From contig JACOXU010000003.1 in the NCBI GenBank assembly GCA_016182185.1, forward strand, positions 123,881 to 187,880: 64,000 nucleotides of DNA, read 5' to 3'. The position numbers and the translations under genes were made by a program. The notes beneath the pieces were generated by a model. The model made no database searches. It was given only the letters and a program-made list of their open reading frames with translations, and was not told the origin of the DNA. Below are positions 2,217-64,000 of this stretch, piece by piece. Each line of letters begins with the position of its first letter. Positions within the stretch are counted from its first letter, which is position 1. The stretch comes from Candidatus Levyibacteriota bacterium (GTDB lineage: Bacteria > Patescibacteriota > Microgenomatia > Levybacterales > UBA12049).

Positions 2217-3338
2217 TTAGGGTTTGGGGAGAATGGATTGGCCTGAGATAAGGCGAATAATATCAGAAAGAGTTATAAAAGCAATAAGTGCTAGAAGTAT
2301 TGCCATCCCTATTGCATGAGCATAGGCTTCATATTTCTGAGGAACTTTTCTGCCTGTTACTCCCTCTATAAGAATAAAAAACAGTCTTCCGCCGTCAAGT
2401 GCCGGAATAGGCAGAATATTTAAGATTGCAAGATTTAAAGAAAGAAGTGAAACCAAAGACAGAACTGCCAAGGGGCCGAATTGAATAAACTGCCCTGTAA
2501 GTTGCGCTATGCCTACAGGTCCTGCGACGCCTTTGGGAATTTGCGCATGAAACAAGAGCTGGGAGAATACCATACCAAGCCCTGCAATAATAGCCCATGA
2601 CTGCTTAAATGCTTCCATAAGCCCAATAAGCGGAGCCTGATAAAGAGGATATTTTTTCGTTACTATATTTGAGGATATAGAAATTCCCATGGGTCCTTCG
2701 TTGGTGGGATAATTTTTTCGGGGAACCAATGTTATATCTTTTTCTTCCCCTGATTCTTTTTGAACATGAAGTGCTATTTTTTCTCCCAAATGGCTTTTGG
2801 TAACTGAAACAAGTGTTTTGGGACTTGTGATTTGTATGCCATTAATTGTCTCAATAATATCTCCGCTTTTAAGCCCCGACTTATCAGCCGGAGAATTTTT
2901 GACAATTTGACTCACGATCACTTTGTCCCCCGGAGCTTGGACACCGGCAACTCCAAAAAAGTAGGTTATTATAACAACTGCCAGCAAAAAATTCATTACA
3001 ACCCCTGCAACGACCACCAATGCTCTTTGCCAGACTGGCCGGGCAAAAAAAGCCCGATCTTTATCTACAGCCTTTGATTCTTTTTCAGTGAAACCGCGTT
3101 TGACGCGGCCTGCTCCTGCCTCATCTTCTCCATAAAGCTTTACAAATCCACCTATGGGTAGTAAATTAATCGAATAAATTGTTTCTCCCCTTTTGATTCC
3201 AAAAATTCTTGGCGGAAGTCCAAATCCGAATTCTTCAACTTTAATCCCCAATTTTTTTGCCACAAAAAAATGCCCCGCCTCATGAACAAGAACCAAAACA
3301 CTAAGTATTAATAAAAAAACTAAAACTGTAATGATCAT
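2217..3338 (-). CDS. rseP: RIP site-2 zinc metalloprotease RseP (M50 family with PDZ domain)
   Basis: 373 aa; N-terminal HEAGH zinc motif (VHEAGHFFVAKKLG), central PDZ-like segment, C-terminal LDGG motif and multiple TM helices. Confidence 0.8.
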   Translation of the reverse strand: MIITVLVFLLILSVLVLVHEAGHFFVAKKLGIKVEEFGFGLPPRIFGIKRGETIYSINLLPIGGFVKLYGEDEAGAGRVKRGFTEKESKAVDKDRAFFARPVWQRALVVVAGVVMNFLLAVVIITYFFGVAGVQAPGDKVIVSQIVKNSPADKSGLKSGDIIETINGIQITSPKTLVSVTKSHLGEKIALHVQKESGEEKDITLVPRKNYPTNEGPMGISISSNIVTKKYPLYQAPLIGLMEAFKQSWAIIAGLGMVFSQLLFHAQIPKGVAGPVGIAQLTGQFIQFGPLAVLSLVSLLSLNLAILNILPIPALDGGRLFFILIEGVTGRKVPQKYEAYAHAIGMAILLALIAFITLSDIIRLISGQSILPKP

Positions 3339-3466: not shown

Positions 3467-4021
3467 TTATATTTGCAGGAGCTCTTCTTCCTTCTTTTTT
3501 CCCAGTCCTTCAATATCCACCATCAACTCATCCGTAAGTTTTTGCACTTCTTTCTCATGCCTTGCCATCTCATCTTCTGAAATTTCTTTATCGGCATGTT
3601 GCTTCTTGACATGGACCATTGCCTCATGTCTTATTTGACGCACCATAATTCTGGCATTTTCAAGTTTTTGGTGCATAAGATGAATCAGCTCTTTTCTTCT
3701 CTCCTCGGAAAGCTGAGGAATTGTAATTCTTATAACTTGCCCATCGTTTGCAGGATTAAGGCCTAAATTTGCCTCAAGAATTCCTTTCTGAATCTCTCCA
3801 ATAATAGAAGCGTCAAACGGGGTAATCATCAAAGTTTGTGAATCAGATGTGGTGATTGTAGCAAGCTCCATGAGTTTAAGCTTTTGAGTTCCGCCATAAA
3901 CTGAAAGGACGATATTTTCTACGAGGGACGGGGCTGCGCGTCCAGTTCTGACTGTGGCAAGGTCAGACCTTAAAAGATCAAGAACTTTCTGCATTCTTAA
4001 TCTTACTTTTTCTAAATTCAT
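3467..4021 (-). CDS. frr: ribosome recycling factor
   Basis: 184 aa; typical RRF sequence (RTGRA..., VRQIRH...), conserved position downstream of tsf. Confidence 0.9.
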   Translation of the reverse strand: MNLEKVRLRMQKVLDLLRSDLATVRTGRAAPSLVENIVLSVYGGTQKLKLMELATITTSDSQTLMITPFDASIIGEIQKGILEANLGLNPANDGQVIRITIPQLSEERRKELIHLMHQKLENARIMVRQIRHEAMVHVKKQHADKEISEDEMARHEKEVQKLTDELMVDIEGLGKKKEEELLQI

Positions 4022-16204: not shown

Positions 16205-16348
16205 AAATTAAATTCTAAACTCAAAGCATCAAATCACAAATAATATCCAATTTCCAATACTCAAAATTCAAAATTGTTTTGGATATTAGAATTTTATATT
16301 TGTAATTTATTTGAAATTTGTAATTCTGGATTTAGAATTTAAGCAAGA

Positions 16349-16918: not shown

Positions 16919-17073
16919 ATTAAAATTTAATTTTAAAGATGGAATCGCGTCTGACGCGATAAAACCATAGCAAAAGTTTAACATCAAAAAAGGAAATTTA
17001 AAAGTAGTAAATTAACCATCTCTTGACAATTAATTAAATTTACTTTACTGTTTTTATAGAACTTATTTAAATA

Positions 17074-17610
17074 ATGGCAAAAGTAAAATCAGGTCATGGA
17101 AGATTAATTGCGCTTTTTGTTTTATTTGTGATACTTGCGGCAATTCCCCTGACTGTTAAGATATCTCAGGAACAACAGGAAATCCGCCAGCGTGCGGCAT
17201 ATGTTATTCCAACACCAGCTCCCAGATCATCTCCTCCCTGTTTTGTTCCCCAAGCAGTTCTTGACAAGCTGAAAAGATCGATGAATATAATTTCTCAAAA
17301 TTATGGCTATGGTGATGTAGACCAAGATGGAAGTATAACAACAAAGGATGCCCTACTGATTTTAAGATATGTAGCCAAGGCGACTACTCTTTCTCCTCTT
17401 CAGATAGAAGTAGCAGATGTGGATGGAGCACCGAATCTTTTATCATATGCCTCAAACGTTACCGCAGTTGATTCCCTTTTGATACAAAGATATATCGCTA
17501 GACTTCCTCTTCCTGACGGAAGATACAGTTTTCCGGTCTGTCCCAAACCGACGCCAACTCCTGCCCCTCTTATTTCTCCTTGGTCAGTTACTCCGATTCC
17601 TACTAATTAA
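17074..17610 (+). CDS. membrane-anchored dockerin-like repeat protein
   Basis: 178 aa; TM then SQEQQEIRQRAA motif shared with next gene; Ca-binding dockerin-like segment GDVDQDGSITTKDALLILRYV ... VDSLLIQRYI. Confidence 0.5.
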   Translation: MAKVKSGHGRLIALFVLFVILAAIPLTVKISQEQQEIRQRAAYVIPTPAPRSSPPCFVPQAVLDKLKRSMNIISQNYGYGDVDQDGSITTKDALLILRYVAKATTLSPLQIEVADVDGAPNLLSYASNVTAVDSLLIQRYIARLPLPDGRYSFPVCPKPTPTPAPLISPWSVTPIPTN

Positions 17611-17661
17611 TGTCTTTTTTACTATTGACAAAGCATCTTTAACTATTCTATTCTTGTATTA

Positions 17662-20253
17662 ATGGGAAATCCTTTGCAGAAGGTAGTTGAACTTATTAAA
17701 ACATCAAGCCCCAAAAGGACAATAAGCATAATTGTCATCCTTATCATCGCCGCCGCCGTACCTCTCACTGTCATTGTTTCCCAACAACAGCAGGAAATCC
17801 GTCAGCGTGCAGCAGACTGTACAAACGGAATAATATCTGGAAGAGTCTTTTATGATAACAATCCCGAAAATGGCGTTTTTGACCCTACAGAACAAGGTTT
17901 CGATTTAATCGGACAACCAAATGTTGCCCAGGTGAACATGTGGAATAACGACACTGGAATAGCACTCAACAAAGATATAAGCGCCGGAAATGGTGTCTAT
18001 CAATTTACAGCCTCTACCAATAGAGATGGTTACCGCCTAAGATTTACTGCTCCCACGGGGTACAGGATCACAACGCCCCAAAATATTTCTCCATGGCAAG
18101 TAAGTCCGAGATCTGACGGGCGCTGGCAGGCAGATTACCCTGCCTTAAGACTCCCTCCATGTGCGCAAATATACGATTTTGGAATTACCAACGGTCAACC
18201 TCCTACGCCAACTGCTACACCTCCTCCAATCTCAAGCTGTGGTACAAATGGAAATGTTGTTTTTGACAATAAATCTTCGAGTCTCACAACTACAGCGGGC
18301 GCACCCACGACTCTTACGTGGAACCATACTGTGGGCTCTGGAAATAGTCGGCTATTGATTGTCGGGGTTAATCTTCGCACGTCTTCGGGAGGAAATATCA
18401 CTTCTGTTAGAGCCAACAATCAAAACTTGACTCGAATAGGAAATGTAATAAGTGTAGGCGGAACCTCAAGTCCGACAAGTAACTCCATGTGGTACTTACT
18501 TAATCCTCCCAGCGGTTTAGTGTCAATTTCGGTCACGGCAGACAGAAGTCTGACTATCTCAGCCGGTGCTTCAAGCTGGTCCAATGTAGACCCGAATAAT
18601 CCTTTGGGCAACTCAGTCGCAAATACAGGCAACAACTCCAATCCCAATCTATCAATAGCAGGACCTGCTTGCGGTGTTGTAGTTGATAATCTTGCCACAC
18701 CTATCGGCGACTGTCCTCAAACTCCATCTCCTGATTCGCTTCAGACCCTGCTTTGGAGCGTGAATGTGCCTGGAGATAATCTCTCTGATCAGGGAGGAAA
18801 GGGTCAAAGCGCAGGCAGTTATAAACAATCAGCTACTCAGACAACTATGTGGTGGAATAATGCTTGCAGCGGAGCTTGGGCTTTAAAAGCCGTTCCGGTA
18901 GCGGCATTTGAACCCACTCCCACACCAACAAATATTCCGACACCGACACCTACTCTAGTTGCTGGTGCCAAACCTCCCCCTTGTTTTGTCCCTGCTTCGC
19001 TTCTAAGTCAACTCGGGCTCCCAACTACTGCTGTAAGAGGCTATGGAGATGTTGATTTGGATGGTGATGTTGACATGACTGATGCTACCAAAATATTAAA
19101 TTTTGTTGCTCTAATTCCACCGCTTCCTTCACCTCTTCAAATTGAAGTGGCTGATGTTGATTCAACTTGGGGTGTTCTTTCCAATGCGTCAAGCATAACC
19201 TCAGTTGATTCACTCATGGTTCAAAGATATTTACAAAACTTACCCATACCATCACAATATAATCCACCGAACTCAAATACAATAAGTCTGCCGGTTTGTT
19301 TAGGCCAGCCTACAATCACGCCAACCCAACCGCCAACCCCTATTCCAACTACTATCAGGACGCCAACTCCAACCACTACGCCTCAGTGTACATCCGGTCA
19401 AACATGCACTGCATGTACTGCACCTGCTAATACTTGTAATGGTTCAGGCACTCAAAGCTGTACTCTGACAACAACCTCTACTGGATCTACAAACTGCCAG
19501 CAAGTTACGACTCATAATATTTCCTGTACCGGCGCGCCGGCCAACTGCACAAATGGTAATGTTTGTGTAAGTAACGCCTGTGTTGCTCCAACCGGAGTGC
19601 CCACGGCAACTGTTGTACCCACCCTGACGAAGCCTCCAGGAGTTACTGTTACAGAAGCGCCAAGAATAAGCCCGACCGCTGTTCCGACTATTCCAACCGG
19701 TAATACAGTCTTTGCCCTAAACATTGGACTTGATGGAATTGGAACTGTCGGAGATAATGTCAATCCGAATAATTCGAGTGGCTCCAATAAAAATCCATTG
19801 AGAACATCAAGAAGCGTAACTATTCAGGTGTTTGATAACAACAACACCGAGGTAGCAAATAAGTCCGGCACGCTTACCTATCAAACAGGAAGCGGCAGAT
19901 TTACCGGAAATGTGGATATGGATAGGCTTGCAAGCGCAAATTACAATGTCAAAGTAAAATCTCCAGGCTATCTAAGACGTCTTATTCCTGGAATTCAAAA
20001 TGTGACTGCCGGTCAGGCGTTTAATCTCCCGAATGAAAACTTGGTTACGGGCGATATCAACGGGGACAATGCAATTAATATTCTGGACTACAATATATTT
20101 ATAAGCTGTTCTATCTTCAGTAAAGACGGACAAGCAGTCTGCAACCAGAACCCTGACTACAAAACGCTCTCTGACCTTGATGACAACGGGGCAACTGATC
20201 AGTTTGATTACAATCTGTTTGTCAGAGAACTTTCAGTCCAAAACGGAGATTGA
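17662..20253 (+). CDS. large cell-surface protein with SdrD-B-like domain, Cys-rich module and two dockerin-like modules
   Basis: 863 aa; N-terminal TM+SQQQQEIRQRAAD; GRVFYDNNPENGVFD (Cna/SdrD B-like); Thr/Pro linkers; dockerin-like GDVDLDGDVDMTDATKILNFV...VDSLMVQRYL and C-terminal GDINGDNAINILDYNIF...DLDDNGATDQFDYNLF; about 180-aa domain shared with the giant protein at 58607..64000. Confidence 0.55.
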   Translation: MGNPLQKVVELIKTSSPKRTISIIVILIIAAAVPLTVIVSQQQQEIRQRAADCTNGIISGRVFYDNNPENGVFDPTEQGFDLIGQPNVAQVNMWNNDTGIALNKDISAGNGVYQFTASTNRDGYRLRFTAPTGYRITTPQNISPWQVSPRSDGRWQADYPALRLPPCAQIYDFGITNGQPPTPTATPPPISSCGTNGNVVFDNKSSSLTTTAGAPTTLTWNHTVGSGNSRLLIVGVNLRTSSGGNITSVRANNQNLTRIGNVISVGGTSSPTSNSMWYLLNPPSGLVSISVTADRSLTISAGASSWSNVDPNNPLGNSVANTGNNSNPNLSIAGPACGVVVDNLATPIGDCPQTPSPDSLQTLLWSVNVPGDNLSDQGGKGQSAGSYKQSATQTTMWWNNACSGAWALKAVPVAAFEPTPTPTNIPTPTPTLVAGAKPPPCFVPASLLSQLGLPTTAVRGYGDVDLDGDVDMTDATKILNFVALIPPLPSPLQIEVADVDSTWGVLSNASSITSVDSLMVQRYLQNLPIPSQYNPPNSNTISLPVCLGQPTITPTQPPTPIPTTIRTPTPTTTPQCTSGQTCTACTAPANTCNGSGTQSCTLTTTSTGSTNCQQVTTHNISCTGAPANCTNGNVCVSNACVAPTGVPTATVVPTLTKPPGVTVTEAPRISPTAVPTIPTGNTVFALNIGLDGIGTVGDNVNPNNSSGSNKNPLRTSRSVTIQVFDNNNTEVANKSGTLTYQTGSGRFTGNVDMDRLASANYNVKVKSPGYLRRLIPGIQNVTAGQAFNLPNENLVTGDINGDNAINILDYNIFISCSIFSKDGQAVCNQNPDYKTLSDLDDNGATDQFDYNLFVRELSVQNGD

Positions 20254-20330
20254 CAAGAAAAACAAAATATTTAATACTAAATTAAGTGTAGGTTTTGATT
20301 TTTGCCTTTTGAATTTTAAATTTAATTAGT

Positions 20331-20981
20331 ATGTCCAGACGAACAATTATATTAATCATAGCACTTGTCGGTATAACAGGAATCTTACTTGCTATTGCCC
20401 TGACTCAAAAAAAGGGTCCGGGACCTTCTGTGACTAAACCTTCGCCTCAGGTTCAGGTGCCTTACGCTCATACGTCGCTTGAGATAAGCAGTAATCCCGT
20501 TTCCCAGGCAACTTCTTCGGGATCATCCACCTATTCCCTGGATGTGAATATTAACACGGAAACAGATAAGGTGACTGCAGTCCAGCTTGAATTATCTTTC
20601 GACCCCAAGGCAATCTCAAATGTAGATGTTAAACCAGGCACTTTCTTTAAAAATCCTGCCCAACTTATCAAAAGAGTAAATGCTAAGGACGGAACAATCT
20701 CATATGCGCTAGGAATAAATCCCGGAGAAAATGGAATACAAGGAAGTGGAGTCGTTGCCGAAATCTCATATCGGGAAATTGGCCAATCCGGAACTTACAC
20801 CCAGATTAATTTTCTACCCAAAACATTGGTAAGCGCTGAGGGAACGGATAAATCTGTTCTTAAAAAATCAATCGGATCACTAATTATGCTCGGGGGAGCA
20901 AGTCCTGCAAATTCGACTAAGCCCGCCACTTCAGGTGCTATTCCTCAAACGACAAGAACTCAGCCTAATCCTTTTCAATAA
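20331..20981 (+). CDS. membrane-anchored cohesin-like domain protein
   Basis: 216 aa; TM anchor; LELSFDPKAISNVDVKPGTFF...DGTISYAL...GSGVVAEISYREIG pattern resembles cohesin type-I beta-sandwich. Confidence 0.45.
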   Translation: MSRRTIILIIALVGITGILLAIALTQKKGPGPSVTKPSPQVQVPYAHTSLEISSNPVSQATSSGSSTYSLDVNINTETDKVTAVQLELSFDPKAISNVDVKPGTFFKNPAQLIKRVNAKDGTISYALGINPGENGIQGSGVVAEISYREIGQSGTYTQINFLPKTLVSAEGTDKSVLKKSIGSLIMLGGASPANSTKPATSGAIPQTTRTQPNPFQ

Positions 20982-26610: not shown

Positions 26611-26887
26611 TACTTAAATAATAGTGGAAAAATATTCGTCGGTCAAGAGGTGGTAGGAAACTATTGAATAGAATTTATCTACCCTCAGTATAACGGATAG
26701 ATCAAGCGCTATTCATTCTCCCGCCAAAGGCGGGATTCGCTTGTGGCCAATACACTTTCTCGCAAAATTTCTACTCTTAACCTAATTAGAAATTAGAAAA
26801 TTAAAAATTAGAAATTCCACTCCGCGTCAGCGGAGGGGCTTAGGTGTCTTCTCTCAATCCAATACTGAGTAAAATCGAAGTATTAGA

Positions 26888-28340
<1,453 letters not shown>

Positions 28341-28678
28341 TTCCTACCACTTCCTGACCGAGAAACCCTGAGTTTATCGAAGGGTTTCATTTCAAGAAGT
28401 AAATCCAAAATGTGTGCTGATTCACTTTTTAAAGTGCAACTTTTATATAAGATCTTAAGACAATCCACCTTGCCTTACCACTCGGCTTTAGATTCCATTC
28501 GAATACGCCTCGTGGAGCAGCTTTTGGCGGATAATGAATTTTTAATTTTCAAATGAGCATTAAAAATCCCGCCAAAGGCGGGTTCTATATTCCTTTTTTA
28601 GGAACCAGACTTTCGGCGAAAGGTCTTACATATCTTCAAATTTGCTTACCCAGTTAAAGGTTTACAAACAGTAAATCT

Positions 28679-34171: not shown

Positions 34172-34555
34172 ATGCAGTCGCATGAGAGAGAAAAAAGGCT
34201 ACCTGTTGGATTCGATATTGAAAAAATAGCTGAGAATTTAAGAGGATGGGAGTTAAGACAATTTTCTTTCATGAGAGAAGAAGGTGAATGGCAGCTTTAT
34301 AGAGTAGTCTCTGACGATAATGTAAGTCTAGAAATGAAACCGGCTAAGAGGTACGTTTGTTTAAGAGCAGCTACAGGAAGGCATTTTTCGACCAATGCTA
34401 ATATCTTTTGTAGAAATATAGAATCTGTTAATATTTCTAAAGGTGAGGTGGAATTTAAAGGAGATGTAAATTTAATTGTCCGAACATACAGCTTTGAAGT
34501 AAGACTCCCGGATGCTCCTCGAGAAGATGCTATTATTGTACATTTTACTCCTTAA
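34172..34555 (+). CDS. hypothetical protein, probably leaderless transcript
   Basis: 127 aa; own TTGATT-16-TGATATAAT promoter ending 7 nt before ATG. Confidence 0.35.
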   Translation: MQSHEREKRLPVGFDIEKIAENLRGWELRQFSFMREEGEWQLYRVVSDDNVSLEMKPAKRYVCLRAATGRHFSTNANIFCRNIESVNISKGEVEFKGDVNLIVRTYSFEVRLPDAPREDAIIVHFTP

Positions 34556-35657
34556 CTGAATAGGTACTATTACCCACATTTTTAACTATCCCCTTAATCT
34601 CCATCATTGATAAAATACTCCCGAGTTTTGAGGAATCAATCCTTGTCTTTCGGGCAATTTCATCAAAATACAATTCCTCATTCCTCAAAGCTTGTAAAAT
34701 CAATCTCTCTTCTTTACTCTCTGTTTTATATTTTGTAGTTTGGGTTTTTGGATTTATTTGAGATTTGTAATTTGGAATTTGTAATTTTAATTCATTTAGT
34801 ATATCTTCAGTAGACGTTACCAACTTCGCTCCCTTATTTATCAGCTTATAAGGTCCTTTCGACAAGACAGAATTAATCGGACCCGGCACTGCGAAAACCT
34901 TGCGATTAAATTTGAAGGCAAAATCAGCTGTAATAAGAGAGCCCGAATCCTCTGCTCCTTCTGTGACTAAAACTGCCTTGGATAATCCTGCTATAATTCT
35001 ATTTCGTGAAGGGAAAAGACCCTTGCCTGGTAAGTAACTTAGGGGAACCTCGGAAATTACGCAGCCTCTGCCATTAATAATTTTGTCATAAATATTTTTA
35101 TTATGTATCGGCGTGCAGCAATCCACTCCACATCCCAAAACTGCGATAGTCTTCCCGCCATTTTCAAGAGTAGATAAATGCGAAATCCCGTCAATGCCTA
35201 ACGCCAGACCAGATACTATTGTAAAACCTGATAAGCTTAAATCTTCAGCAAACTTCTGGGTGACTTCCTTTCCATAATTTGTTGGCTTTCTTGATCCGAC
35301 AATTCCAATTGTCTGTTTCAATTCATCTTTAAACTTCTCAAATCTTAATCCTCTGCCAAAAAGGACAAATGGCGGATTGGGAATCTCAAGAAGAAGTTCG
35401 GGATAACTTGTGTCATTACTTGTGATGAACCAGGCATTCTTCTTTTTTAATTTTTCCAAGTAATCTTTTATAGAAAATTCATTCCTGAATTTATCAAACT
35501 TAATTGTCAGCTTGTCCCCCAAAACTTTTTTTAAATCTGTTATTTCGGCTTTCCATGCTTTTTCTGCTGTTCCAAACTCGGCAAGCAGTTTTTTAAATTT
35601 CAAAGGTCCTACTCCAGAAAACACCGAAAACCCCAACCAATAATTTCTTTCCTCCAT
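34545..35657 (-). CDS. dprA: DNA processing protein DprA (Smf) with C-terminal winged helix
   Basis: 370 aa; Rossmann core GIVGSRKPTNYG...GLALGIDGISH; linker codes an intergenic-type repeat word. Confidence 0.8.
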   Translation of the reverse strand: MEERNYWLGFSVFSGVGPLKFKKLLAEFGTAEKAWKAEITDLKKVLGDKLTIKFDKFRNEFSIKDYLEKLKKKNAWFITSNDTSYPELLLEIPNPPFVLFGRGLRFEKFKDELKQTIGIVGSRKPTNYGKEVTQKFAEDLSLSGFTIVSGLALGIDGISHLSTLENGGKTIAVLGCGVDCCTPIHNKNIYDKIINGRGCVISEVPLSYLPGKGLFPSRNRIIAGLSKAVLVTEGAEDSGSLITADFAFKFNRKVFAVPGPINSVLSKGPYKLINKGAKLVTSTEDILNELKLQIPNYKSQINPKTQTTKYKTESKEERLILQALRNEELYFDEIARKTRIDSSKLGSILSMMEIKGIVKNVGNSTYSVKE

Positions 35658-45044: not shown

Positions 45045-45611
45045 ATGCTCAAAATTATTACTGCTCCTGATCGAGTTCTCTCTCAAAGAGCAAAAAGAGT
45101 TAAAAAGATAGATAAATCCATCTTGGAATTTGTTGAAGAGATGAAAATGGCGCTTCTTGCGGCCAAAGATCCCGAAGGCGTGGGTCTTGCCGCACCTCAG
45201 GTTGGCAAATCTCTTTCAGTTTTTATCACAAAGCAAAACGCTAAGTCACCCATCAAAGTCTTTATAAATCCCCACCTTAAACTTGATCAAATAAATTTTA
45301 ATCCTGAAAATAAAAATCAAAAAAGAGGAGCAAAAAAATCAATTTCAAAAAGACTAGAAGGATGTCTTTCTCTTCCGAACATTTGGGGACACGTAAAACG
45401 TGGCTCCAATTTATCGATTTCGTATCAGGATGAAAATGGCAAAAATCATTCGAAAAAATTTACTGGGTTTATGGCCACAATAATTCAACACGAAATGGAT
45501 CATTTAAACGGCGCTCTTTTTACCAAAAGAGTTCTTCAACAGAATGGAATTCTCTATAAATCACATAAAAATGAACAAGGCGAAGATATTTTTGAAGAAA
45601 TAGAAGTGTAA
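45045..45611 (+). CDS. def: peptide deformylase
   Basis: 188 aa; GVGLAAPQVG, EGCLS, QHEMDHLNG motifs. Confidence 0.85.
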   Translation: MLKIITAPDRVLSQRAKRVKKIDKSILEFVEEMKMALLAAKDPEGVGLAAPQVGKSLSVFITKQNAKSPIKVFINPHLKLDQINFNPENKNQKRGAKKSISKRLEGCLSLPNIWGHVKRGSNLSISYQDENGKNHSKKFTGFMATIIQHEMDHLNGALFTKRVLQQNGILYKSHKNEQGEDIFEEIEV

Positions 45612-45694
45612 ATTAACCTAATTAATCTAATTGACCTAATTTCTAAATTGGGATTCTGTTTAGGTTAACTAGAAATTAGAGTGATTAGAAATTT

Positions 45695-46519
45695 ATGAAG
45701 ATCATCTTCTTTGGAAGCTCAAAATATTCGGTCATTGTTGCTAAAAAACTCCATCAGGAATTCAATTTAAAACTTGTTGTTACTACTCAAGCCGATTCCT
45801 TTCCTGTTAAATTTGCAGCAGAAAATAATATCGACCATAAGGTTGTCTCGAAGTTTGATAGAGAAACTATCGAACAGATAGAAAAATACAAACCCGATTT
45901 TAATGTTGTGGCTGATTTTGGCAAAATTCTTCCCGAAGAATTGCTCAAACTACCTAAATTTGATTCTTTAAATGTCCATCACTCACTTCTTCCCAAATAT
46001 CGAGGGCCATCCCCTGCTCCCACTGCGATTTTAAATGGAGAGAAAGTAACCGGCGTGTCAATTATTTCTATGCAAAGGGGCGTGGATCAAGGACCAGTCT
46101 TTCTCCAAAATGAATATGAAATAAAAGATATCGATACAACTGATTCGCTTCTTACCAAATTGAATGTTTTGGGCGCTGATTTAGTATCTAAAGTCATTAA
46201 AAATTTTGAGAATGAAAAGCCTATTCCGCAAGATGAATCCGAAGTGACGATTACATATCTTTTAAAAAGAGCTGATGGTTTTATTGATATAGATAATCCT
46301 CCACCGCCTGATAAATTAAATCGAATGATCAGAGCTTATTTTCCTTGGCCCAATGTTTTCTTTGAGGCTAAATTAAATGGAAAGGGGAAAATTATTAAGC
46401 TCTTGCCGGATAAACAAATTCAAGCCGAGGGAAAAAAGCCAATGAGCTATAAAGACTTTATCAATGGCTATAAAGAGGGAAAATATTTACTCCGCAAAAT
46501 TAACCTAATTTCTAATTGA
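45695..46519 (+). CDS. fmt: methionyl-tRNA formyltransferase (short C-terminus)
   Basis: 274 aa; SLLPKYRGPSP motif, follows def. Confidence 0.8.
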   Translation: MKIIFFGSSKYSVIVAKKLHQEFNLKLVVTTQADSFPVKFAAENNIDHKVVSKFDRETIEQIEKYKPDFNVVADFGKILPEELLKLPKFDSLNVHHSLLPKYRGPSPAPTAILNGEKVTGVSIISMQRGVDQGPVFLQNEYEIKDIDTTDSLLTKLNVLGADLVSKVIKNFENEKPIPQDESEVTITYLLKRADGFIDIDNPPPPDKLNRMIRAYFPWPNVFFEAKLNGKGKIIKLLPDKQIQAEGKKPMSYKDFINGYKEGKYLLRKINLISN

Positions 46520-46610
46520 TCTAATGTCTAAAACTTTGTTTTGAATTTAAGATTTTGAATTTGGAATTTGTTTAGAAATTGGAAATTAGGATTTAGAAAT
46601 TTGGTGCTAT
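46500..46610. repeat. intergenic degenerate tandem repeat array (GGAATTTGG / AGAAATT units, about 11-bp period)
   Basis: TTGAATTTAAGATTTTGAATTTGGAATTTGTTTAGAAATTGGAAATTAGGATTTAGAAATTTGG. Confidence 0.5.
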
Positions 46611-48578: not shown

Positions 48579-48600
48579 CTACAAAGCCCGTTTGACGCAG

Positions 48601-56819: not shown

Positions 56820-57221
56820 ATGGCAGAAAAGAAATCGAAAATTGATGAATTAATGAAGACAGTCGAGGAAATGTCTGTTCTTGAACTTTCAGAGTTTGTG
56901 AAAGCACTGGAAGAAAAATTTGGTGTAACTGCACAAGCTATGGCCACGTCAAACGTGGTTACAGGAGGAAGCGAAGCCGCGTCTGACGCGGAGCCGAAAG
57001 AGGAACAAACAGTCTTTAACGTAGTAGTCGCAAGTTCCGGCGCCAACAAAATCTCTGTTATCAAAGCCTTAAGAGAACTCGTTCCCACATTGGGACTTAA
57101 AGAAGCCAAAGATTTGGTCGATGCAGCTCCAAAAGAAGTAATGACCCAAGTCAACAAAAAAACAGCAGACGAAGCCAAGGAAAAACTCACGGCAGCCGGC
57201 GCAACAATAGAGCTAAAGTAA
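56820..57221 (+). CDS. rplL: 50S ribosomal protein L7/L12
   Basis: 133 aa; NTD MAEKKSKIDELMKTVEEMSVLELSEFVKALEEKFGV, Ala/Glu hinge, CTD; carries 26-nt GC element in hinge. Confidence 0.9.
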   Translation: MAEKKSKIDELMKTVEEMSVLELSEFVKALEEKFGVTAQAMATSNVVTGGSEAASDAEPKEEQTVFNVVVASSGANKISVIKALRELVPTLGLKEAKDLVDAAPKEVMTQVNKKTADEAKEKLTAAGATIELK

Positions 57222-57239
57222 GAATCGCTAAAAAGTCTT

Positions 57240-57350
57240 AACGAGTCTTAATGAGATTTCTTAACGATCTTAACGATACGGGATCGTCAAATGTCATCAA
57301 ATGTCATCAAAGAAATGCGTTGTTCTTACGTAATTATCTGCGTAATTCTG
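57240..57350. repeat. cluster of short direct-repeat iterons downstream of rplL
   Basis: 4x CTTAAYGA(G/T), 2.5x GTCATCAAAT, 2x GCGTAATTnTCTGCG, followed by palindrome GGGCAACAAGTTGCCC and TTGACA. Confidence 0.5.
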
Positions 57351-57471
57351 CGGAGGGCAACAAGTTGCCCCTTGACAAGAAGTGTTATGGTTTGTTATTT
57401 TGTAGATAGTTAACTTATATATTGATCCTAATTAAATATGGATTGATTAGAATAAATATAGTCTTGAGCCT

Positions 57472-57687
57472 ATGAGTAATCAAACTCTATCAATCAATAA
57501 TCTTCCTGATCTTCTTACTGTTCGTGAAGTTGCTCAAATTCTCCGTGTTTCTCCGCTTACTATAAAACGCTGGGGCAAAAGAGGTAAGCTTCCTGCCATC
57601 CGTATAAATTCCCGTGGCGACCGAAGATATAAAAAAGAAGCAGTAATGTGGCTACTTGGCATACAGGAAAAAAGAGAAATCCTCTAG
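57472..57687 (+). CDS. excisionase-family (MerR-like) HTH DNA-binding protein
   Basis: 71 aa; LLTVREVAQILRVSPLTIKRWGKRGKLPAIRINSRGDRRYKKE matches helix_turn_helix excisionase-family pattern. Confidence 0.55.
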   Translation: MSNQTLSINNLPDLLTVREVAQILRVSPLTIKRWGKRGKLPAIRINSRGDRRYKKEAVMWLLGIQEKREIL

Positions 57688-57781
57688 AAAATTCCTAAAT
57701 CCTAATTACCCTAATTACTCTAAATAAATCCCAAGTCCCAATTTTAAATTTTTAGATCAATTAGGTCAATTAGAAATTAGG
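57688..57781. repeat. intergenic degenerate tandem repeat array (AATTAGGTCAATTAGAAATTAGG family)
   Basis: CCTAAATCCTAATTACCCTAATTACTCTAAAT...TTAGATCAATTAGGTCAATTAGAAATTAGGTTAATTA. Confidence 0.5.
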
Positions 57782-58135
57782 TTAATTATTAATACTTAAT
57801 ATCCTTCCAAATATTCTGATTAGAGCTTCGCTTTCATCCTCAATAAACCCGATTGTCTGATGAGGCTTTCTACCCTCTGAGCTCTTCAGGATTTTTACCC
57901 AGTATTTAGTTTCTCTCATTTCTCTTTTGGCCTGTGTCATTTTAAACACGAAGTCTTTCCCTTCTGCAACTTTGGCTTTTTCATAAACCTCCTCTGCCAT
58001 TTTGATCTTGCGCGTAATCTGATTGGAAAGTACAAAATTCACACTGCTGTAAGGAAGTTTCTCCCTAAGCTCCATTGCGAAAGACAGGAGGTTCAATATC
58101 CTTCTCTCTATATAATGCGTTAGTTCAATACTCAT
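57782..58135 (-). CDS. four-helix-bundle protein (PF05635 / bAvd-like)
   Basis: 117 aa; RETKYWVKILKSS ... EALIRIFGRIL matches conserved ETxYWL core of family. Confidence 0.5.
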   Translation of the reverse strand: MSIELTHYIERRILNLLSFAMELREKLPYSSVNFVLSNQITRKIKMAEEVYEKAKVAEGKDFVFKMTQAKREMRETKYWVKILKSSEGRKPHQTIGFIEDESEALIRIFGRILSINN

Positions 58136-58197
58136 ATTATAAAATTTCTAAATCCTAATTATTCTAATTACTAATCAAATCCCAATTCTCCAATTTA

Positions 58198-58557
58198 TTA
58201 TTTAACTTTTTTATATATTGAATTGAAAATTAAGTTTAGTTCTTTTGCTTCCTGCCATAATATTCTTGCTTCTTCTTTTAACTGTGGGGCAGCAACTACA
58301 ATCATTCGCAGAAAATGTTTTACTTCTCTTGCTTCTTTTTTGCAGATTCCTATTTTATGCTTAAAATCTTGTTTACTTTCTGCATCATCCGCTTCTGAGT
58401 AATTTGCGCCAATACTTGTCTCTGCTTTAACAAGCTGACTAATCAAAGGGTTGGTTATTGGGTTTTTAGAAATTGACTTACAAAAGATAATGACATTCTT
58501 TCCAAACTTTGCCGTCCTCTCTTCCAGATCGTACTTGTTATTTATTTTTTTATTCAT
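58198..58557 (-). CDS. four-helix-bundle protein (PF05635 / bAvd-like)
   Basis: 119 aa; QLVKAETSIGANYSEADDAESKQDFKHKIGICKKEAREVKHFLRMI matches 23S-rRNA-IVS/Avd family core. Confidence 0.6.
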   Translation of the reverse strand: MNKKINNKYDLEERTAKFGKNVIIFCKSISKNPITNPLISQLVKAETSIGANYSEADDAESKQDFKHKIGICKKEAREVKHFLRMIVVAAPQLKEEARILWQEAKELNLIFNSIYKKVK

Positions 58558-58606
58558 TTATTAGGTTAATTAGGTCAATTAGAAATTAGTTCAATTTGCT
58601 GGTGAG
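58558..58606. repeat. intergenic repeat array between giant gene and 4HB gene
   Basis: TTAGGTTAATTAGGTCAATTAGAAATTAGTTCAATTT. Confidence 0.5.
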
Positions 58607-61600
58607 CTACCGTTCGTCGACTATCCACCAATCAAACTTGATATCTCGACTGTAGCGTCTTTCAATCTCAACTGTGAAGCCTGAGCCGGCTGCTTTATTC
58701 GTAACCACGAGCGGCTGGCCTCCGGTAAGGCTTGTGGCAGTCACAAATATTCTGGATTTATTGGTCACGGCAGCCGTATCAACTACCACACTCGTATCTC
58801 CTGCGAGCAGGGTCCCCGAACCCAGCGAAGCCGCGTTTGACGCGGTGGTATCGATATTGACTTTCTTGGCTGTGATTTCACCTTCTGTTTTTATATTTCC
58901 ATTGGTATCAATCGTGACTTTGCCTGAGAGTATATTTATCCCACCCAAGCCATTGCTCTGAAGGTTCAAATCTCCAATACTATTTATAGATGCTCCCCCA
59001 TCTCCATTGTTAAGCGATGAGTCAAGTCCGTGAATTGACAAGAGCCCTGCTGCGATGTTACCGGTCACTCCCAGATCTGCAGTCGTCGTTCTGCCCAGCA
59101 CCATCAAGTTGCCTGATATTGTCGCGCTCTCTGCGTTGATATTGGTCAGATCAGGTAGAAGCGAAGCCGCGTTTGACGCGGTTGAGACACCCAATACTGC
59201 TCCATTCAGCATGCTCTGCAGGAAGGCAGATTCTGATGCCAGCTGATCCACTCTTTGTGAGAGACTATTGGTATTAAGCTCTAAGCCGGTTACTCTATTT
59301 TGCATATCCGCGAACAACGGATCACTACTCAAATCAAATGTCCCCGAAGATGAAGCTGACGATACGGGATCGTTACTTGGGTTGATCAGTCCCAGCAACT
59401 GGCTCGCCTCCTCCGCACTAAACTGCGCATATGGATTAGTCACGCTCCCATCTGCTGCAATTTGAATCCTCGGATCTCTCCAGGAAAGGTTTATAAATAC
59501 TGAAATTTTACCAATAATATCCGGATCTGAGTTGCTGTAGCCTTCAATAGCAATCCCTATAACCATTCCCGGCTTTGTTGCCTTCATGGCTACACCGGGC
59601 TTACTTGATGCAGTAAGAGAATCACCCGGCATTATTTCTCCATTTTCCGCAGATACTTTTACAGGAACACGACCAGAAAGAGCAACAGCGACTTCTTTTA
59701 CTGATCGGGGGTCTGTTTTCTGACCATGCCCACCAAGCAACACACCTGGTTTTTCTGAGATGACACCAAGCATTGCAGAATTTGTGGATGACTTTTGAAC
59801 AAATTCTGTTTCGTAGTCATGTTCAAAAGGATTATCAGGTGGGGTATCAGGTTTGGGCTGATAATTTAAACTTACAACGTCCCCAGCTTCTATTGAATCA
59901 TCAAGCGTCGGGAAATTTTCAGCTATATCATCAATCGTAAAGCTTGAACTAATACCATATACAGTACCTGCAGTTCTTGAAGCATCAATACAGTCGTCTG
60001 CAGTATCTAGAGAATCATCTGCGCAGATAGCTCCATAGGCTAGTATACCATTGCCGCCTATATTAGTAGTCACATTAGCTCCGGCTGCTCCGACAAGCAA
60101 ATCCCCCCCGCTTCCTCCTGTGACAGTAAATATAGTAGCCCCCGAGGCTGAGGCGGTAAAAATATCTAGACCAGATGTTTGGTTTATAACTGCTGCTGCC
60201 TTACCGCCTGATGCTCCGGAAAGATTAAGCATCGAACCAAGACCCGAGCTTGTGACGTTAAGTACGGCCCCTGTTGAAAGCCCATTACTCTGGGTAAGAG
60301 AAAGAACATTTGCAGTATCGGTACAGCCGCCAGTGGTAATACTGCAATTGGATGTCAGATTTGCCAATGAGCCAGATAGACTAACAGATCCAACTGGTAT
60401 CATAGAGACTCCATTGTCTACCCAATTGCCTGACCCCGTATTAGACCACGAATGAGTTGGATTCTCTTGCGTGCTGTCTGAATAAGCTACGGATGGATTA
60501 AGAAATCCGCCCTGTCTTTTTGTATTAACCCCCGTAGTCGTGAGTGTTCCGCTAACCGCTGAGGCTACTATATCTATTGCCGTTCTGCCCAAAGAGTTTG
60601 TGATGGCATTATTAGGCGTAGTACTAGAACCAGTTGAAGAGGTACAACCTGCAAAAGCGCTTCCTACAGTTTGATTAATGTTAAAGTAGCTGGCAGTAAT
60701 AACATAACCACGATCACTTCCACTTCCATTGGTGAAGTTTACACTTGTTGTATTAGCGCCTGAAGATGAAGAATCCCCCATTGCTATAGCAAAAATATCC
60801 GTAGCTACACTAGTGCCATTTGTAGCCTGACTACAGACTCTCGTAGCGGAACTTCCGCCGTACGTTACAGTATTAATTGTTTCAGAATTTGCATTCTGAT
60901 ATGCAATGGCTATTACCACCATACGGTTGCTTCCTGCTCCCAAAGTATGGCTGTTAGTTATTGTAGTATTAGTAAGAGTCCAACTACTTATAACAGAGGA
61001 GTCATAAACACTTGTATTTATGCTTAAATTTCGATTTAGATTTAGCAAATTACCGGAGTCAGTATTGATAGCTGTATATGTAGCGGTATGATCTCCATTG
61101 ATAAGATTGGCAGAAGTCAAATTGGCAGAAGTGGAAAGGACATTTAGGCCCTTACCCGTAGTTAGGGAATTTGCGGCGATTGAGAACGCGTCTCCTGTAG
61201 TTGCAGAAGAGGTTGCAAAGACAGACCCCCAATTATTTATAGTAAAGACTGTGCTTCCCGATTTTGATGCTGTGAAAATATCTGCATTTGGTGAAAGGTC
61301 TGTTTGATTTACTCTAAGAGCTGCGTTATTCCCGCTGATGCCGGATATGTCTAATAATCCTATTGGACTTGTATTTCCGATACCTACTCTGCCAATATTA
61401 TTTATAACAAATTTTGTAGAGCCTGAAGAAGAGGCGGATAGAATATAATCATTTGTATTAGTTCCAGTTTGGTTGAGAATCATCAAAGCGTTGTGTCCGT
61501 TGTTGCCTGATAGATCAAGGAGTCCAAGTGGGCTTGTGTTGCCGACCCCGACCCTACCAAGATTGTTGATGACAAATTTGGTAACACCAGAGGATGAGGC

Positions 61601-64000
61601 AGCCAAAACATAATCGTTGGCATTGGTACCAGTCTGGTTAAGGATCATTAAGGCGTTTTGTCCGTTATTACCAGATAGATCAAAAAGACCTAAGGGAGTC
61701 GAATTCCCAATCCCAACTTTACCGAGTTTATTTATAACGAACTTAGTTGTCCCGCTCTTTGAAGCTGTAAAGATGTCATTATTCCCTGTCTGATTGATAA
61801 TTGCAGCTGCCTTACCACCGGAGGCTCCTGAAATATTTAGCATTGGCCCAAGACCTGAGGTGGCGATGTTGAGTACCGCACCTGTCGAAAGACCATAACT
61901 CTGGTTAAGAGAAAGAAGATTTGAACTATCATTGCAAATTCCAGCTGTTACAGTACAATTAGAGGTTATTGACGCAAGGCTTCCCGTAAGATCTGCTGTG
62001 CCTACTCCGGGAACGAGTGCCACTCCTAGATGATACCAAGATAAATCAGTACCACCGGCAGTCCAGGCCATGTTGGTGCTTGCACCTGTAGCTGATTCTT
62101 CCGAATAAGCGGCTACATAGACTGTCGAGCCGTATGTTTGGTTCCATCTCTGCGTTTGATTACTTCCTCCAGGAAGTGAGAGTGTCGGGTTTATGCCTGC
62201 ATTCAGCATAGAATCTATTACAACATCCCCGCTCTGGCTTGTAACATTTAAGCTTGGGCTGGTACCCGAACCTGTTTCGGTCTGACAAGTAGCACGAAAT
62301 GGGCTTGTTTGAGAGACTCCGCTATAAGTTGTTGCTAAAGCGACCCAGGTCTCACTATTACCTAATGTTATTGATACAGTATTTGAACCCGAACTTGGAT
62401 TAAGCAAATAATACATATCTATGGCTTCTGTTCCTGGTGAAAAAGTACAGCCTGGAATCAAAGTGAGCGCTGAACCGTTATAAGTAATAGATGATATTCC
62501 AGCATTTCCTGCTCTTGATACGGTAACTATTAATATACGGTTGTCACCCGTTCCGGTAGTGTGTGAAAAATTAGCTGAACTACCTGTTTGCTCAGCCAGA
62601 GTGGTACTATTATCATAAGCAATAGTTTGAGTTGAGGTATTCAGAGTATAATTTCTACTAAGGCTTGCTAAATTTCCAGAAATATTAGCATTACTCGTAC
62701 CGGTATACGTATTGGTCTGGTTTACATTTAATCCTTTACCACTCGTCAGCGAATTTGCTACGATTGAGAAGGCGTCTGTCGAAACTGCAGAAGAAGTGGC
62801 ATAGATACCTCTATTTATAGTATCAAAATTGAGCATCGAACTTCCGGCAGCATCTGCAATCTGAAGAGCTGTTGATGAATTGGTCAAAGGCAGCCATTGC
62901 GCACCTGCGACGGAGACCAGATTTCCTCCGTTTGTAATTCTGAACTTGGTCGTTCCGCTTGTTGAGGCGGCTAGAATGTCATTCGTGCTTGCGCCGGTTT
63001 GGTTGATGATAAGAGCGGCGTTTCCTCCCTGATTTCCTCCTTGCAAATCCAGAAGCGCAGTTGGGGTGGTTGTGCCGATGCCCGCCCAGACATAATTCGC
63101 TCCAGTCCCTCCAAGAACCAGCCTATTGCTTGCTCCCACAATCGCGTTGTATCCAAGGGCTGTAGAACCGTTGATGCTGTTTGATGATGTTTGAGATAGA
63201 TATCCTATGAATGTGTTGTTGCTTCCCGAGGTGAGTGGAACACCTTGAGTGCCTGCTGAAACTCCGATGGCTGTATTGCCCGAGCCTGTAACATTTTGAA
63301 GAGCAGCGTTTCCCAACGCAGTGTTATTGGTTCCTGTATTTCCAGAGCTAAGACCTACGAAGGTGTTCGTTCCTCCGGGTGCTCTGAATAGATTATTATT
63401 GGATTGTTTTATGATAATCTCTCCGGTCGTATCTCCTCCGATAGTCAAAGTCCTTTGGGCGGTTGACTGTATACTTCCGCCTGCTCCGAGCGAGAAATTA
63501 CCGGCGATAGAAGCAGTAGGAGTACCCGAATTGATATTCAAGACTGCGAACTTTGCAGATTGGGTCGTGGTTCCACCCAGAAGAAGATCAACTGTATTGG
63601 CAAAGGCAGGAGTATAAGCTCCACTCACCAGATCCCATCTTGCGCCTGCACAGTCACTTGAAGCAGTAACTATACCATTTGAGGTAGTTACACAGGAGCC
63701 TGATACATCTGCTCCGGCTGTGCCATTGATCCTGAGCTTACTTGATCCAGCCAAGCTGATATTTATATCTCCTGTGTCTCCTCCGCCCAAGGTCAGAGTT
63801 TGTCTATTCGTAGACGTAAGACTTCCTGCTGTATCTATAGTAAATCCTGCAGCAGATGAAGCATTACCGCTGTTGGTGACTCTGAATTTAGTTGCACCGG
63901 ATGAAGAGGCGGCAAGAATATCACCGTTTGAAGTAGAATTATTGACTATAAGAGTCGCGTTGTTGCCTGCGTCTCCGGTTATTTCAAGAAATGCTTTAGG
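58607..64000 (-). CDS. giant Gly/Ser/Thr/Asn-rich repetitive surface protein (partial; N-terminus beyond window)
   Basis: ORF track 58607..63790 (1727 aa) starts at an in-frame TTG; reading frame stays open to position 64000; tandem about 57-aa repeats (NQTGTN..DY.L.ASSSG.TKFVINN.GRVG.GNTSP.GLLD), two copies of about 180-aa domain shared with 17662..20253. Confidence 0.6.
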   Translation of the reverse strand, partial: PKAFLEITGDAGNNATLIVNNSTSNGDILAASSSGATKFRVTNSGNASSAAGFTIDTAGSLTSTNRQTLTLGGGDTGDINISLAGSSKLRINGTAGADVSGSCVTTSNGIVTASSDCAGARWDLVSGAYTPAFANTVDLLLGGTTTQSAKFAVLNINSGTPTASIAGNFSLGAGGSIQSTAQRTLTIGGDTTGEIIIKQSNNNLFRAPGGTNTFVGLSSGNTGTNNTALGNAALQNVTGSGNTAIGVSAGTQGVPLTSGSNNTFIGYLSQTSSNSINGSTALGYNAIVGASNRLVLGGTGANYVWAGIGTTTPTALLDLQGGNQGGNAALIINQTGASTNDILAASTSGTTKFRITNGGNLVSVAGAQWLPLTNSSTALQIADAAGSSMLNFDTINRGIYATSSAVSTDAFSIVANSLTSGKGLNVNQTNTYTGTSNANISGNLASLSRNYTLNTSTQTIAYDNSTTLAEQTGSSANFSHTTGTGDNRILIVTVSRAGNAGISSITYNGSALTLIPGCTFSPGTEAIDMYYLLNPSSGSNTVSITLGNSETWVALATTYSGVSQTSPFRATCQTETGSGTSPSLNVTSQSGDVVIDSMLNAGINPTLSLPGGSNQTQRWNQTYGSTVYVAAYSEESATGASTNMAWTAGGTDLSWYHLGVALVPGVGTADLTGSLASITSNCTVTAGICNDSSNLLSLNQSYGLSTGAVLNIATSGLGPMLNISGASGGKAAAIINQTGNNDIFTASKSGTTKFVINKLGKVGIGNSTPLGLFDLSGNNGQNALMILNQTGTNANDYVLAASSSGVTKFVINNLGRVGVGNTSPLGLLDLSGNNGHNALMILNQTGTNTNDYILSASSSGSTKFVINNIGRVGIGNTSPIGLLDISGISGNNAALRVNQTDLSPNADIFTASKSGSTVFTINNWGSVFATSSATTGDAFSIAANSLTTGKGLNVLSTSANLTSANLINGDHTATYTAINTDSGNLLNLNRNLSINTSVYDSSVISSWTLTNTTITNSHTLGAGSNRMVVIAIAYQNANSETINTVTYGGSSATRVCSQATNGTSVATDIFAIAMGDSSSSGANTTSVNFTNGSGSDRGYVITASYFNINQTVGSAFAGCTSSTGSSTTPNNAITNSLGRTAIDIVASAVSGTLTTTGVNTKRQGGFLNPSVAYSDSTQENPTHSWSNTGSGNWVDNGVSMIPVGSVSLSGSLANLTSNCSITTGGCTDTANVLSLTQSNGLSTGAVLNVTSSGLGSMLNLSGASGGKAAAVINQTSGLDIFTASASGATIFTVTGGSGGDLLVGAAGANVTTNIGGNGILAYGAICADDSLDTADDCIDASRTAGTVYGISSSFTIDDIAENFPTLDDSIEAGDVVSLNYQPKPDTPPDNPFEHDYETEFVQKSSTNSAMLGVISEKPGVLLGGHGQKTDPRSVKEVAVALSGRVPVKVSAENGEIMPGDSLTASSKPGVAMKATKPGMVIGIAIEGYSNSDPDIIGKISVFINLSWRDPRIQIAADGSVTNPYAQFSAEEASQLLGLINPSNDPVSSASSSGTFDLSSDPLFADMQNRVTGLELNTNSLSQRVDQLASESAFLQSMLNGAVLGVSTASNAASLLPDLTNINAESATISGNLMVLGRTTTADLGVTGNIAAGLLSIHGLDSSLNNGDGGASINSIGDLNLQSNGLGGINILSGKVTIDTNGNIKTEGEITAKKVNIDTTASNAASLGSGTLLAGDTSVVVDTAAVTNKSRIFVTATSLTGGQPLVVTNKAAGSGFTVEIERRYSRDIKFDWWIVDER
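61390..61900 (-). repeat. intragenic tandem repeats, about 171-nt unit x3, inside giant gene
   Basis: units share about 80 percent identity (…CAAATTTGGTAACACCAGAGGATGAGGCAGCCAAAACATAATC… vs …CAAATTTTGTAGAGCCTGAAGAAGAGGCGGATAGAATATAATC…). Confidence 0.6.

Follow-up and report, generated by a model that had tools for sequence, protein, structure and literature searches.

A hairpin-forming DNA repeat of Microgenomates/Patescibacteria at tRNA and tmRNA gene ends, beside small GIY-YIG genes and within coding sequences: a possible counterpart of the Ssn nuclease sites

The 64-kb stretch of Candidatus Levyibacteriota DNA analysed here (the window) carries dispersed copies of a palindromic 22-nucleotide (nt) repeat, AGCGAAGCCGCGTYTGACGCGG, among them one in the hinge of the ribosomal protein gene rplL and two in a giant open reading frame (ORF) nearby. 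Microgenomates/Patescibacteria possess a family of DNA repeats that form hairpins and are conserved in sequence, and the 22-mer is one copy type of this family, here called H1. The family has a home position at the 3' ends of tRNA and transfer-messenger RNA (tmRNA) genes, ahead of a gene for a small single-domain GIY-YIG nuclease, and its copies within protein-coding genes leave the length of the host gene unchanged. The explanation that we favour, and hold tentatively, is that the repeat is the counterpart in the candidate phyla radiation (CPR) of Ssn/NTS, a system that pairs a site-specific nuclease for single-stranded DNA (ssDNA) with cognate hairpin repeats.

Exact copies of the 22-mer are found at three window positions, 56970, 58824 and 59160. 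The first is an intact H1-type copy (AGCGAAGCCGCGTCTGACGCGG, 56970..56991, plus strand, nhmmer E 2.5e-7) in rplL (56820-57221, plus strand, TIGR00855), where the hinge string GAAGCGAAGCCGCGTCTGACGCGG at 56968-56991 codes for GSEAASDAEP, the part within the 22-mer being SEAASDA; read on the minus strand it has its home orientation, CCGCGTCAGACGCGG-CTTCGCT. At a distance of 11 nt from it lies a partner hairpin, CCACGTCAAACGTGG (56944..56958, plus strand), which has a compensatory A:T variant at the third stem pair, the variant being that of H1 in locus L190. Partner and 22-mer make up an inverted doublet that resembles the H1-H2 pair beside tRNA and tmRNA genes. The other two exact copies are intact, T-loop forms inside the giant ORF of 1727 amino acids (58607-63790, minus strand). 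On the plus strand, site 1 is at 59160..59181 (string GAAGCGAAGCCGCGTTTGACGCGGT at 59158-59182) and site 2, in the 3' part of the ORF, at 58824..58845 (string AGCGAAGCCGCGTTTGACGCGGT at 58824-58846), and both are read in minus-strand codons as TASNAASL. An H1-type variant with two transitions, AGTGAAACCGCGTTTGACGCGG (3087..3108, plus strand, nhmmer E 1.9e-6), lies inside rseP (2217-3338, minus strand), where it is translated in a third frame as AGRVKRGFT.

Upstream of dcd stands the H2-type sequence ATCGCGTCTGACGCGAT (16944..16960, no strand assigned), a perfect 8+1+8 palindrome 25 nt before the start codon (ATG, 16918-16916). Both its sequence and its distance from the start codon match those of hairpin H2 ahead of GIY-YIG genes. 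The gene string behind it (10972-16918, minus strand) comprises dcd, tmk, a dut/dcd-like gene, thyA, a TrpR-like gene, a NUDIX gene, folA and glyA, and makes up a complete dTTP/folate block. A decayed H1, CTGCGTCAAACGGGCTTTGTAG (48579..48600, minus strand, 17/22 with one gap), occupies the entire 22-nt spacer between the genes for tRNA-Tyr and tRNA-Thr; its first base is the one next to the tRNA-Tyr discriminator, and it is in the home register. Weaker resemblance is seen in GCGTCAAACGGGG, a degenerate relative inside frr (3810..3822, plus strand, E 1.5), and in CACGTAAAACGTG inside the peptide deformylase gene def (45390..45402, no strand assigned), a possible relative that may have arisen by chance. 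An earlier note, made from the sequence alone, had correctly located the strings in rplL and in the giant gene, together with the peptides they encode, and the palindrome ahead of dcd, although it put the latter 26 nt from the start; it had missed the copy in rseP and four degenerate relatives.

The same note held these matches to be far beyond chance, and this is borne out by comparison with dinucleotide shuffles. With up to three mismatches allowed, the 22-mer has four matches in the window against 0.00 expected (100 shuffles), and its 13-nt core has five sites against 0.03 expected; CGTYWRACG matches eight times against 0.62 expected, and among 9-mers and 10-mers in the window the core is the most over-represented. 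Of the element's six reading frames five are open, and three are used in the three window genes that contain it, which indicates a nucleic-acid signal and not a peptide motif. The four intact window copies are all on one strand, in a window whose GC skew is negative throughout; this strand bias, which the note had proposed to check, does not extend to 63 metagenome loci, where orientation relative to skew is split 36:28, and no strand claim is drawn from it.

The core of the 22-mer is a 6-bp stem with a 3-nt loop, CCGCGT-YTG-ACGCGG, folding as DNA at about -7.5 kcal/mol (z about -3.4); a complete module of three hairpins, described below, reaches z = -6.2. Across the family the central CGT-NNN-ACG is constant, and the three outer pairs vary yet remain complementary, with stems such as CCG/CGG, CCA/TGG, TCG/CGA, AAA/TTT, GCG/CGC and CGAG/CTCG. 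Covariation was assessed in 67 sites outside the pattern used for finding the loci. The outer three stem pairs are Watson-Crick in 40, 51 and 45 of these sites (shuffle maxima of 35, 34 and 29, respectively), with three to four pair types at each pair. The hairpin is under selection. Differing stems, each still complementary, coexist in single loci, which suits a strand folded on itself better than a double-stranded half-site of fixed sequence.

On the strand opposite to the one given above, H1 reads CC(G/A)CGTCAAACG(C/T)GG-CTTCGCT. In its home form, CCGCGTCAAACGCGG-CTTCGCT, it starts at the CC right after the discriminator base of the RNA gene, and it abuts genes for tRNA-Ala, Ser, Glu and Leu and for tmRNA in the same register in all. 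A second hairpin, H2 (xTCGCGTNNNACGCGAx), follows 15-35 nt past H1 in most tRNA/tmRNA loci, and a third, H3 (GAAACGTCWGACGTTTC, coding for ETSDVS), overlaps the start of the GIY-YIG gene about 25 AT-rich bases beyond H2; the three share the core xCGT-NNN-ACGx. The GIY-YIG ORF has 93-113 codons and encodes the catalytic domain alone (Pfam PF01541, E 8.7e-15). Among loci found through the motif, it lies within about 60-140 nt in eight. As a guard against circularity, six further loci were picked by the protein alone (P0306, P0372, P0308, P0387, P0404 and P0369). H1 stands exactly at the end of an RNA gene in five of the six, this being tmRNA (Rfam RF00023) in four and tRNA-Arg in one, where H1 is a CCACG variant, so that the full CCA is encoded. 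H2-type and H3 hairpins are present in all six. Thus, family hairpins lie 5' of a small single-domain GIY-YIG gene in eight motif-first loci and in every protein-first locus. Neighbouring genes in the protein-first loci include smpB and, in several, a ComFC-like gene. The peptide encoded by H3 recurs in an M-x-ETSDVS start in 107 of 120 homologues of the GIY-YIG protein, whose source names are Patescibacteria, Microgenomates, Gottesmanbacteria and Daviesbacteria.

Two observations concern the surroundings of these modules. Downstream of position 10327, L198 and L199 contain an identical smpB-tmRNA-hairpins-GIY-YIG block with differing genes beyond it, those of L199 being an S24 peptidase gene, a ParB-methylase fusion and other island-like genes, and the site past the module has the look of an integration hotspot. 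These genomes also have small GIY-YIG paralogues, of other subfamilies, directly beside tRNA genes (L187, 8288-8602; L192, 16172-16417 and from about 16650 onward).

At all four coding sites, namely the rplL hinge, the rseP loop and the two giant-gene sites, the host gene has the same length as its orthologues. Homologues of the giant gene have the equal-length IASDSAEF or similar at site 1, without the element, and at site 2 P0121 has the equal-length KDQDARSL, also without it; a further orthologue, P0122, carries CCGCGTCAGACGCGGCTTCGCT at exactly the site 2 codons and lacks the element at site 1. The element in RseP falls in a variable loop where the nearest homologues read AGRITLSSK or GGKVTLK, with no extra residues, and the RplL hinge is at most one or two residues longer than in 120 homologues. 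The coding copies overprint permissive segments (the L7/L12 hinge, the RseP loop and Ser/Ala-rich stretches of the surface protein) and are not insertions. The idea raised in the earlier note of a repeat tolerated in coding DNA is upheld.

Conservation at the level of DNA is clearest in rplL. In the rplL genes of the window and of L130, L150 and L175 the element is identical at 21/21 positions, while nucleotide identity outside it is 55-71%, and only 30-54% of the identical residues outside it share a codon. The closest relative, L194 (83% nucleotide identity), encodes SQAASDA at this place as TCA CAA GCT GCA TCC GAC GCG, matching at 14/21 positions. Since the element is intact in diverged genes and lacking in a close relative, its DNA is either constrained on its own account or repeatedly rewritten, independently of the gene, and its presence does not track the gene tree. 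The rplL copy is also contained in independent assemblies.

A scan of metagenome contigs with AGYGAARCCGCGTYTGACGCGG recovered the exact 22-mer on 63 contigs, mostly from groundwater and sediment and ranging from 33 to 62% GC, which give about 50 distinct contexts once near-duplicates are dropped; a scan of viral contigs found it on none. Many related genomes thus carry the 22-mer, and the outcome that the earlier note had named as refuting, only four copies and none in relatives, does not hold. Three contexts recur: the hinge of other, diverged rplL genes (those of L130, L150 and L175), a position abutting tRNA or tmRNA genes on their 3' side, and an arrangement of AGCGAAGC, the hairpin and GCGAAGYGA, often within the loop of a longer GTCAT-stem...stem-ATCYC hairpin. 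The 8-nt asymmetric flank AGCGAAGC is kept in all ascertained copies, and long ORFs contain the element in both orientations. For a collection of genomes the 15-mer CCGCGTYTGACGCGG was used, a pattern that proved too unspecific; it returned single chance matches in unrelated, mostly GC-rich genomes, besides two genuine tmRNA-hairpin-GIY-YIG modules (L056 and L101). In the literature, neither the exact element string nor uptake sequences in Patescibacteria were found.

The longer hairpins of the third context are a feature of CPR contigs in their own right. The form GTCAT-stem-(GCGAAGC or other insert)-stem-ATCYC occurs 45 times in 368 kb of CPR contigs as against eight times in 902 kb of unrelated control loci, with examples within L124-L186 at L128 8400, L136 1993, L141 4358 and L172 2901, and the loops of some contain one or two CGT-NNN-ACG hairpins of the family. 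One contig (L149, 9050-9290) has five tandem 42-nt units between two same-strand genes, each unit consisting of the element (loop CAG in three, TTG in two) and a 20-nt spacer. The spacers are identical, which rules out a CRISPR-like or TIGR-like array.

A precedent for a small GIY-YIG enzyme with hairpin sites is SsnA of Neisseria meningitidis, a single-domain protein of 94 amino acids that binds NTS (CGTCATTCCCGCGMAVGCGGGAATCYRG), a hairpin repeat with an orientation, solely in ssDNA and cuts a few bases upstream, leading to less recombination of incoming NTS-bearing DNA (Chenal et al. 2025, PMC11893778). Such repeats flank the gene of the enzyme itself; NTS has an oriented non-palindromic flank and is recognised by both sequence and structure; SsnA homologues occur in many phyla, where hairpin repeats (SRM) adjoin their genes, in a study that deals mainly with Proteobacteria and leaves Patescibacteria unmentioned (PMC11893778). 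By comparison with this system we infer that H1 would be the cognate ssDNA site of the nuclease of about 95 amino acids encoded next to it. The enzyme would bind the oriented hairpin in ssDNA, cut beside it and so modulate the recombination of incoming ssDNA. The dispersed window copies are solitary sites of the hairpin family. New copies may arise through short templated patches, that is, by gene conversion from existing copies, although we offer this as a guess. The earlier proposal of a palindrome read by a protein is retained here as the leading idea, in the form of an ssDNA hairpin linked to a GIY-YIG nuclease and not of a double-stranded site. In the window, the three copies at 56970, 58824 and 59160 lie on either side of a small island (a helix-turn-helix (HTH) gene and two four-helix-bundle genes) beside the giant surface-protein gene, which recalls, by analogy only, the NTS-gene-NTS arrangement around Neisseria surface genes.

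Several results weigh against this explanation. The SRM consensus, HGTCWYN(0-2)YYVSBRHN(0-5)WNVSBRGN(0-2)RNCYNB (PMC11893778), has no match in the window (0-1 in simulations) and only five in the 304 kb of loci that carry the element. When plasmids were searched with tblastn for a bridge to known Ssn genes, only two weak matches came up, 37-39% identical, and the nearest solved structures to the nuclease are UPF0213 proteins (E 1e-7). No GIY-YIG gene was detected in the window by a motif scan and by Pfam searches of most ORFs of at least 100 amino acids, and H1 also stands behind tRNA genes that have no nuclease gene close to them (L132/L138, L186 and the tRNA-Tyr of the window); the link between H1 and the nuclease could in part be a shared preference for tRNA and tmRNA 3' ends. 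Four of the five clear window copies are in genes, whereas NTS is rarely so placed (2%; PMC11893778). Finally, the Ssn comparison supplies no mechanism for writing 22 nt into a gene at constant length.

A bolder proposal is that short templated repair or conversion started by the nuclease would repeatedly write the 22-nt hairpin, with a master copy behind the tmRNA/tRNA genes, into coding DNA without changing its length. We consider this unlikely. The likeness of the rplL and 59160 copies, 2.2 kb apart, runs 8 nt past the 22-mer (56962-56991 and 59152-59181, CAGGAGGA and CAGGTAGA, 27/30 identical); at its other side, on the minus strand, the 59160 copy is preceded by GTCTCAA, resembling the GTCTCCA of the tmRNA 3' end before H1 in L155. 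These alignments hint at templated or direct copying between neighbours. If true, such nuclease-linked overprinting would be a new selfish drive or a means by which a genome marks itself for ssDNA restriction, reaching even the essential L7/L12 hinge in several lineages, in bacteria dependent on DNA uptake.

The position of H1 also invites an explanation at the level of RNA, in which it would be a 3'-trailer hairpin for termination, 3' processing or protection of tRNA and tmRNA, H2 and H3 would be leader hairpins, and copies in mRNAs would be by-products or processing sites. The exact register, with the hairpin beginning with the CC of CCA (and the full CCA in L190), speaks for it, as do the fold of the H1-H2 doublet, a long stem of -38 kcal/mol as RNA (z = -6), and the covariation of the stems. 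The copies in rseP, at both giant-gene sites and behind tRNA-Tyr are in trailer orientation relative to transcription. However, a purely structural role would not call for the same 22 bases in genomes whose GC content spans 33-62%, the element occurs in long ORFs in both orientations, and the rplL copy is antisense to the trailer orientation. No family in Rfam matches the element. An association with terminators, another point the earlier note would have had checked, is not seen either, as no T-run follows the hairpins on either strand, and an intrinsic terminator is thus not indicated. On balance an RNA-level role for the family appears to have only a small chance of being correct.

It is still less probable that the repeat is a double-stranded palindromic site for a dimeric protein, such as an operator or the site of a nucleoid or segregation factor. 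Such a site would suit the perfect palindrome 25 nt before the dTTP-synthesis string, which includes a TrpR-like regulator, and the presence of H2 at the same place ahead of GIY-YIG genes; for the dcd copy by itself an operator role is plausible. For the family as a whole it is at odds with the varied complementary stems within one locus (CCGCG/CGCGG, TCGCG/CGCGA, AAACG/CGTTT and CCGAG/CTCGG) and with the asymmetry of the conserved flank AGCGAAGC, and regulation does not account for sites inside genes. A LexA/SOS box was rejected, since the LexA motif of Patescibacteria is, in what the cited report says of it, a direct repeat and not a palindrome (PMC7739468).

The earlier note had also raised a DNA uptake sequence (DUS) or uptake signal sequence (USS), which would accumulate by biased uptake and recombination. 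As with USS and DUS copies, the coding copies are length-neutral, occupy permissive segments and use several frames; the DNA is conserved beyond its host gene, with presence and absence among close orthologues, and inverted doublets lie downstream of genes. ComFC-like genes adjoin several modules, and DprA, which the note had mentioned, does have its gene in the window (34545-35657), although this tells nothing about an uptake signal. Known uptake sequences occur at roughly one per kb, and the density found here is 10-50 times below this, at about one per 13 kb in the window (four to five in 64 kb) and about one per 50 kb in related loci (about two in 110 kb outside modules). No sub-word of the element is frequent by itself, an uptake signal would not be expected to keep so closely to a nuclease gene and to the 3' ends of tRNA and tmRNA genes, and the resemblance to the Neisseria DUS reduces to the 7-mer CGTCTGA, which is restricted to C-loop variants, three of the five copies having TTTGA. 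An uptake signal is accordingly improbable.

A miniature mobile palindromic element inserted in frame, of the type of MITEs, repetitive extragenic palindromes (REP/REPIN) or Rickettsia palindromic elements, is very improbable as an account of the family. Its open frames (five of six), the inverted doublets and the tandem array of L149 would be in keeping with such an element, and its appearance in intergenic GTCAT hairpins resembles insertion between duplicated GCGAAG. For the coding copies mobile insertion, which the earlier note had entertained, is largely refuted, as all four sites are equal in length to orthologues free of the element; the coding copies also have no terminal inverted repeats and no target duplications, and no transposase is present among the annotated window ORFs that were scanned. 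Avd-like four-helix-bundle genes adjoin the giant gene and might suggest the target of a diversity-generating retroelement, but no pair of template and variable repeats was found, and there is no reverse transcriptase in the same set of ORFs. Chance alone, or gene conversion confined to a handful of sites in this genome, could appeal to the 27/30 match already described, but it is refuted as a sufficient explanation, and has next to no chance of being right, given 63 contigs with the exact 22-mer in recurrent contexts where shuffles expect none, and an rplL copy reproduced by independent assemblies.

Some other features of the window are recorded here. Beyond rplL (57222-63790) rpoB does not follow: there is a small gene of HTH_17/MerR type, then the two four-helix-bundle genes (TIGR02436, Avd/23S-IVS-protein-like) and the convergent 1727-residue ORF, whose C-terminus matches K1-lyase_C, a domain of tail-spike type. 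A separate AT-rich repeat family (TTAGGTCAATTAGAAATTAG and TAAATCCTAATTAYYCTAATTACT) has five copies against zero expected (57685-57787, 58138-58596, 3360-3379, 45660-45679 and 46505-46524). Its copies flank the two four-helix-bundle genes and occur in other intergenic gaps, several of them within 1 kb of a hairpin copy. Identical hairpins, CCCGCCAAAGGCGGG, flank the 16S rRNA gene (26887-28338, minus strand) in direct orientation at 26720-26734 and 28568-28582 and may be processing-stem or terminator elements. Proteins with dockerin domains (17074-17610 and 17662-20253, the latter with SdrD_B) adjoin one with a cohesin domain (20331-20981), so that this CPR genome has a cohesin-dockerin pair at 17074-20981.

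Not until 2025 were nucleases described that are site-specific for ssDNA and have cognate hairpin repeats. Candidate-phyla bacteria have tiny genomes and are thought to depend on imported DNA. If the Ssn comparison is right, these bacteria would have their own dialect of the Ssn system, anchored at tmRNA and tRNA genes and with sites maintained at the DNA level inside essential genes. The 95-residue protein and a 22-nt oligonucleotide would then be a testable pair of enzyme and site, rplL would be a clear case of a DNA signal constraining the synonymous sites of a ribosomal protein gene, and the control of recombination with incoming DNA would become easier to approach in lineages that are not in culture.

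Among known systems, the resemblance extends furthest to Ssn/NTS. Both have a single-domain GIY-YIG gene of about 95 codons with adjoining hairpin repeats, an oriented non-palindromic flank, and conservation of sequence as well as of pairing, and in both the copies are dispersed in the genome and cluster near surface-protein genes; the CPR 22-mer, in addition, often sits inside GTCAT...ATC hairpins resembling NTS CGTCATTCCCGCGMAVGCGGGAATCYRG. The hairpin sequence is a different one, however, and the CPR hairpins are confined to the 5' side of the gene and bound to the 3' ends of tRNA and tmRNA genes. The repeat may well work like an Ssn site, but we do not call it an SRM. DUS and USS resemble it in having length-neutral gene copies at tolerant peptides, inverted pairs downstream of genes and a motif common to related lineages, whereas the CPR motif has 22 nt, is itself a hairpin, is 10-50 times rarer and goes together with a nuclease gene and with the 3' ends of stable RNAs. 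The REP/REPIN-RAYT systems likewise consist of short GC-rich palindromes, some in inverted doublets, and of a nuclease-type gene flanked by repeats; their nuclease is of the HUH/Y1 type instead of GIY-YIG, and REPs are extragenic, while the CPR copies are also found in genes. With the palindromic elements of Rickettsia the CPR repeat shares its occurrence within protein-coding genes, essential ones included, but where the Rickettsia elements add 100-150 nt to the host gene, the CPR hairpin copies add no length.

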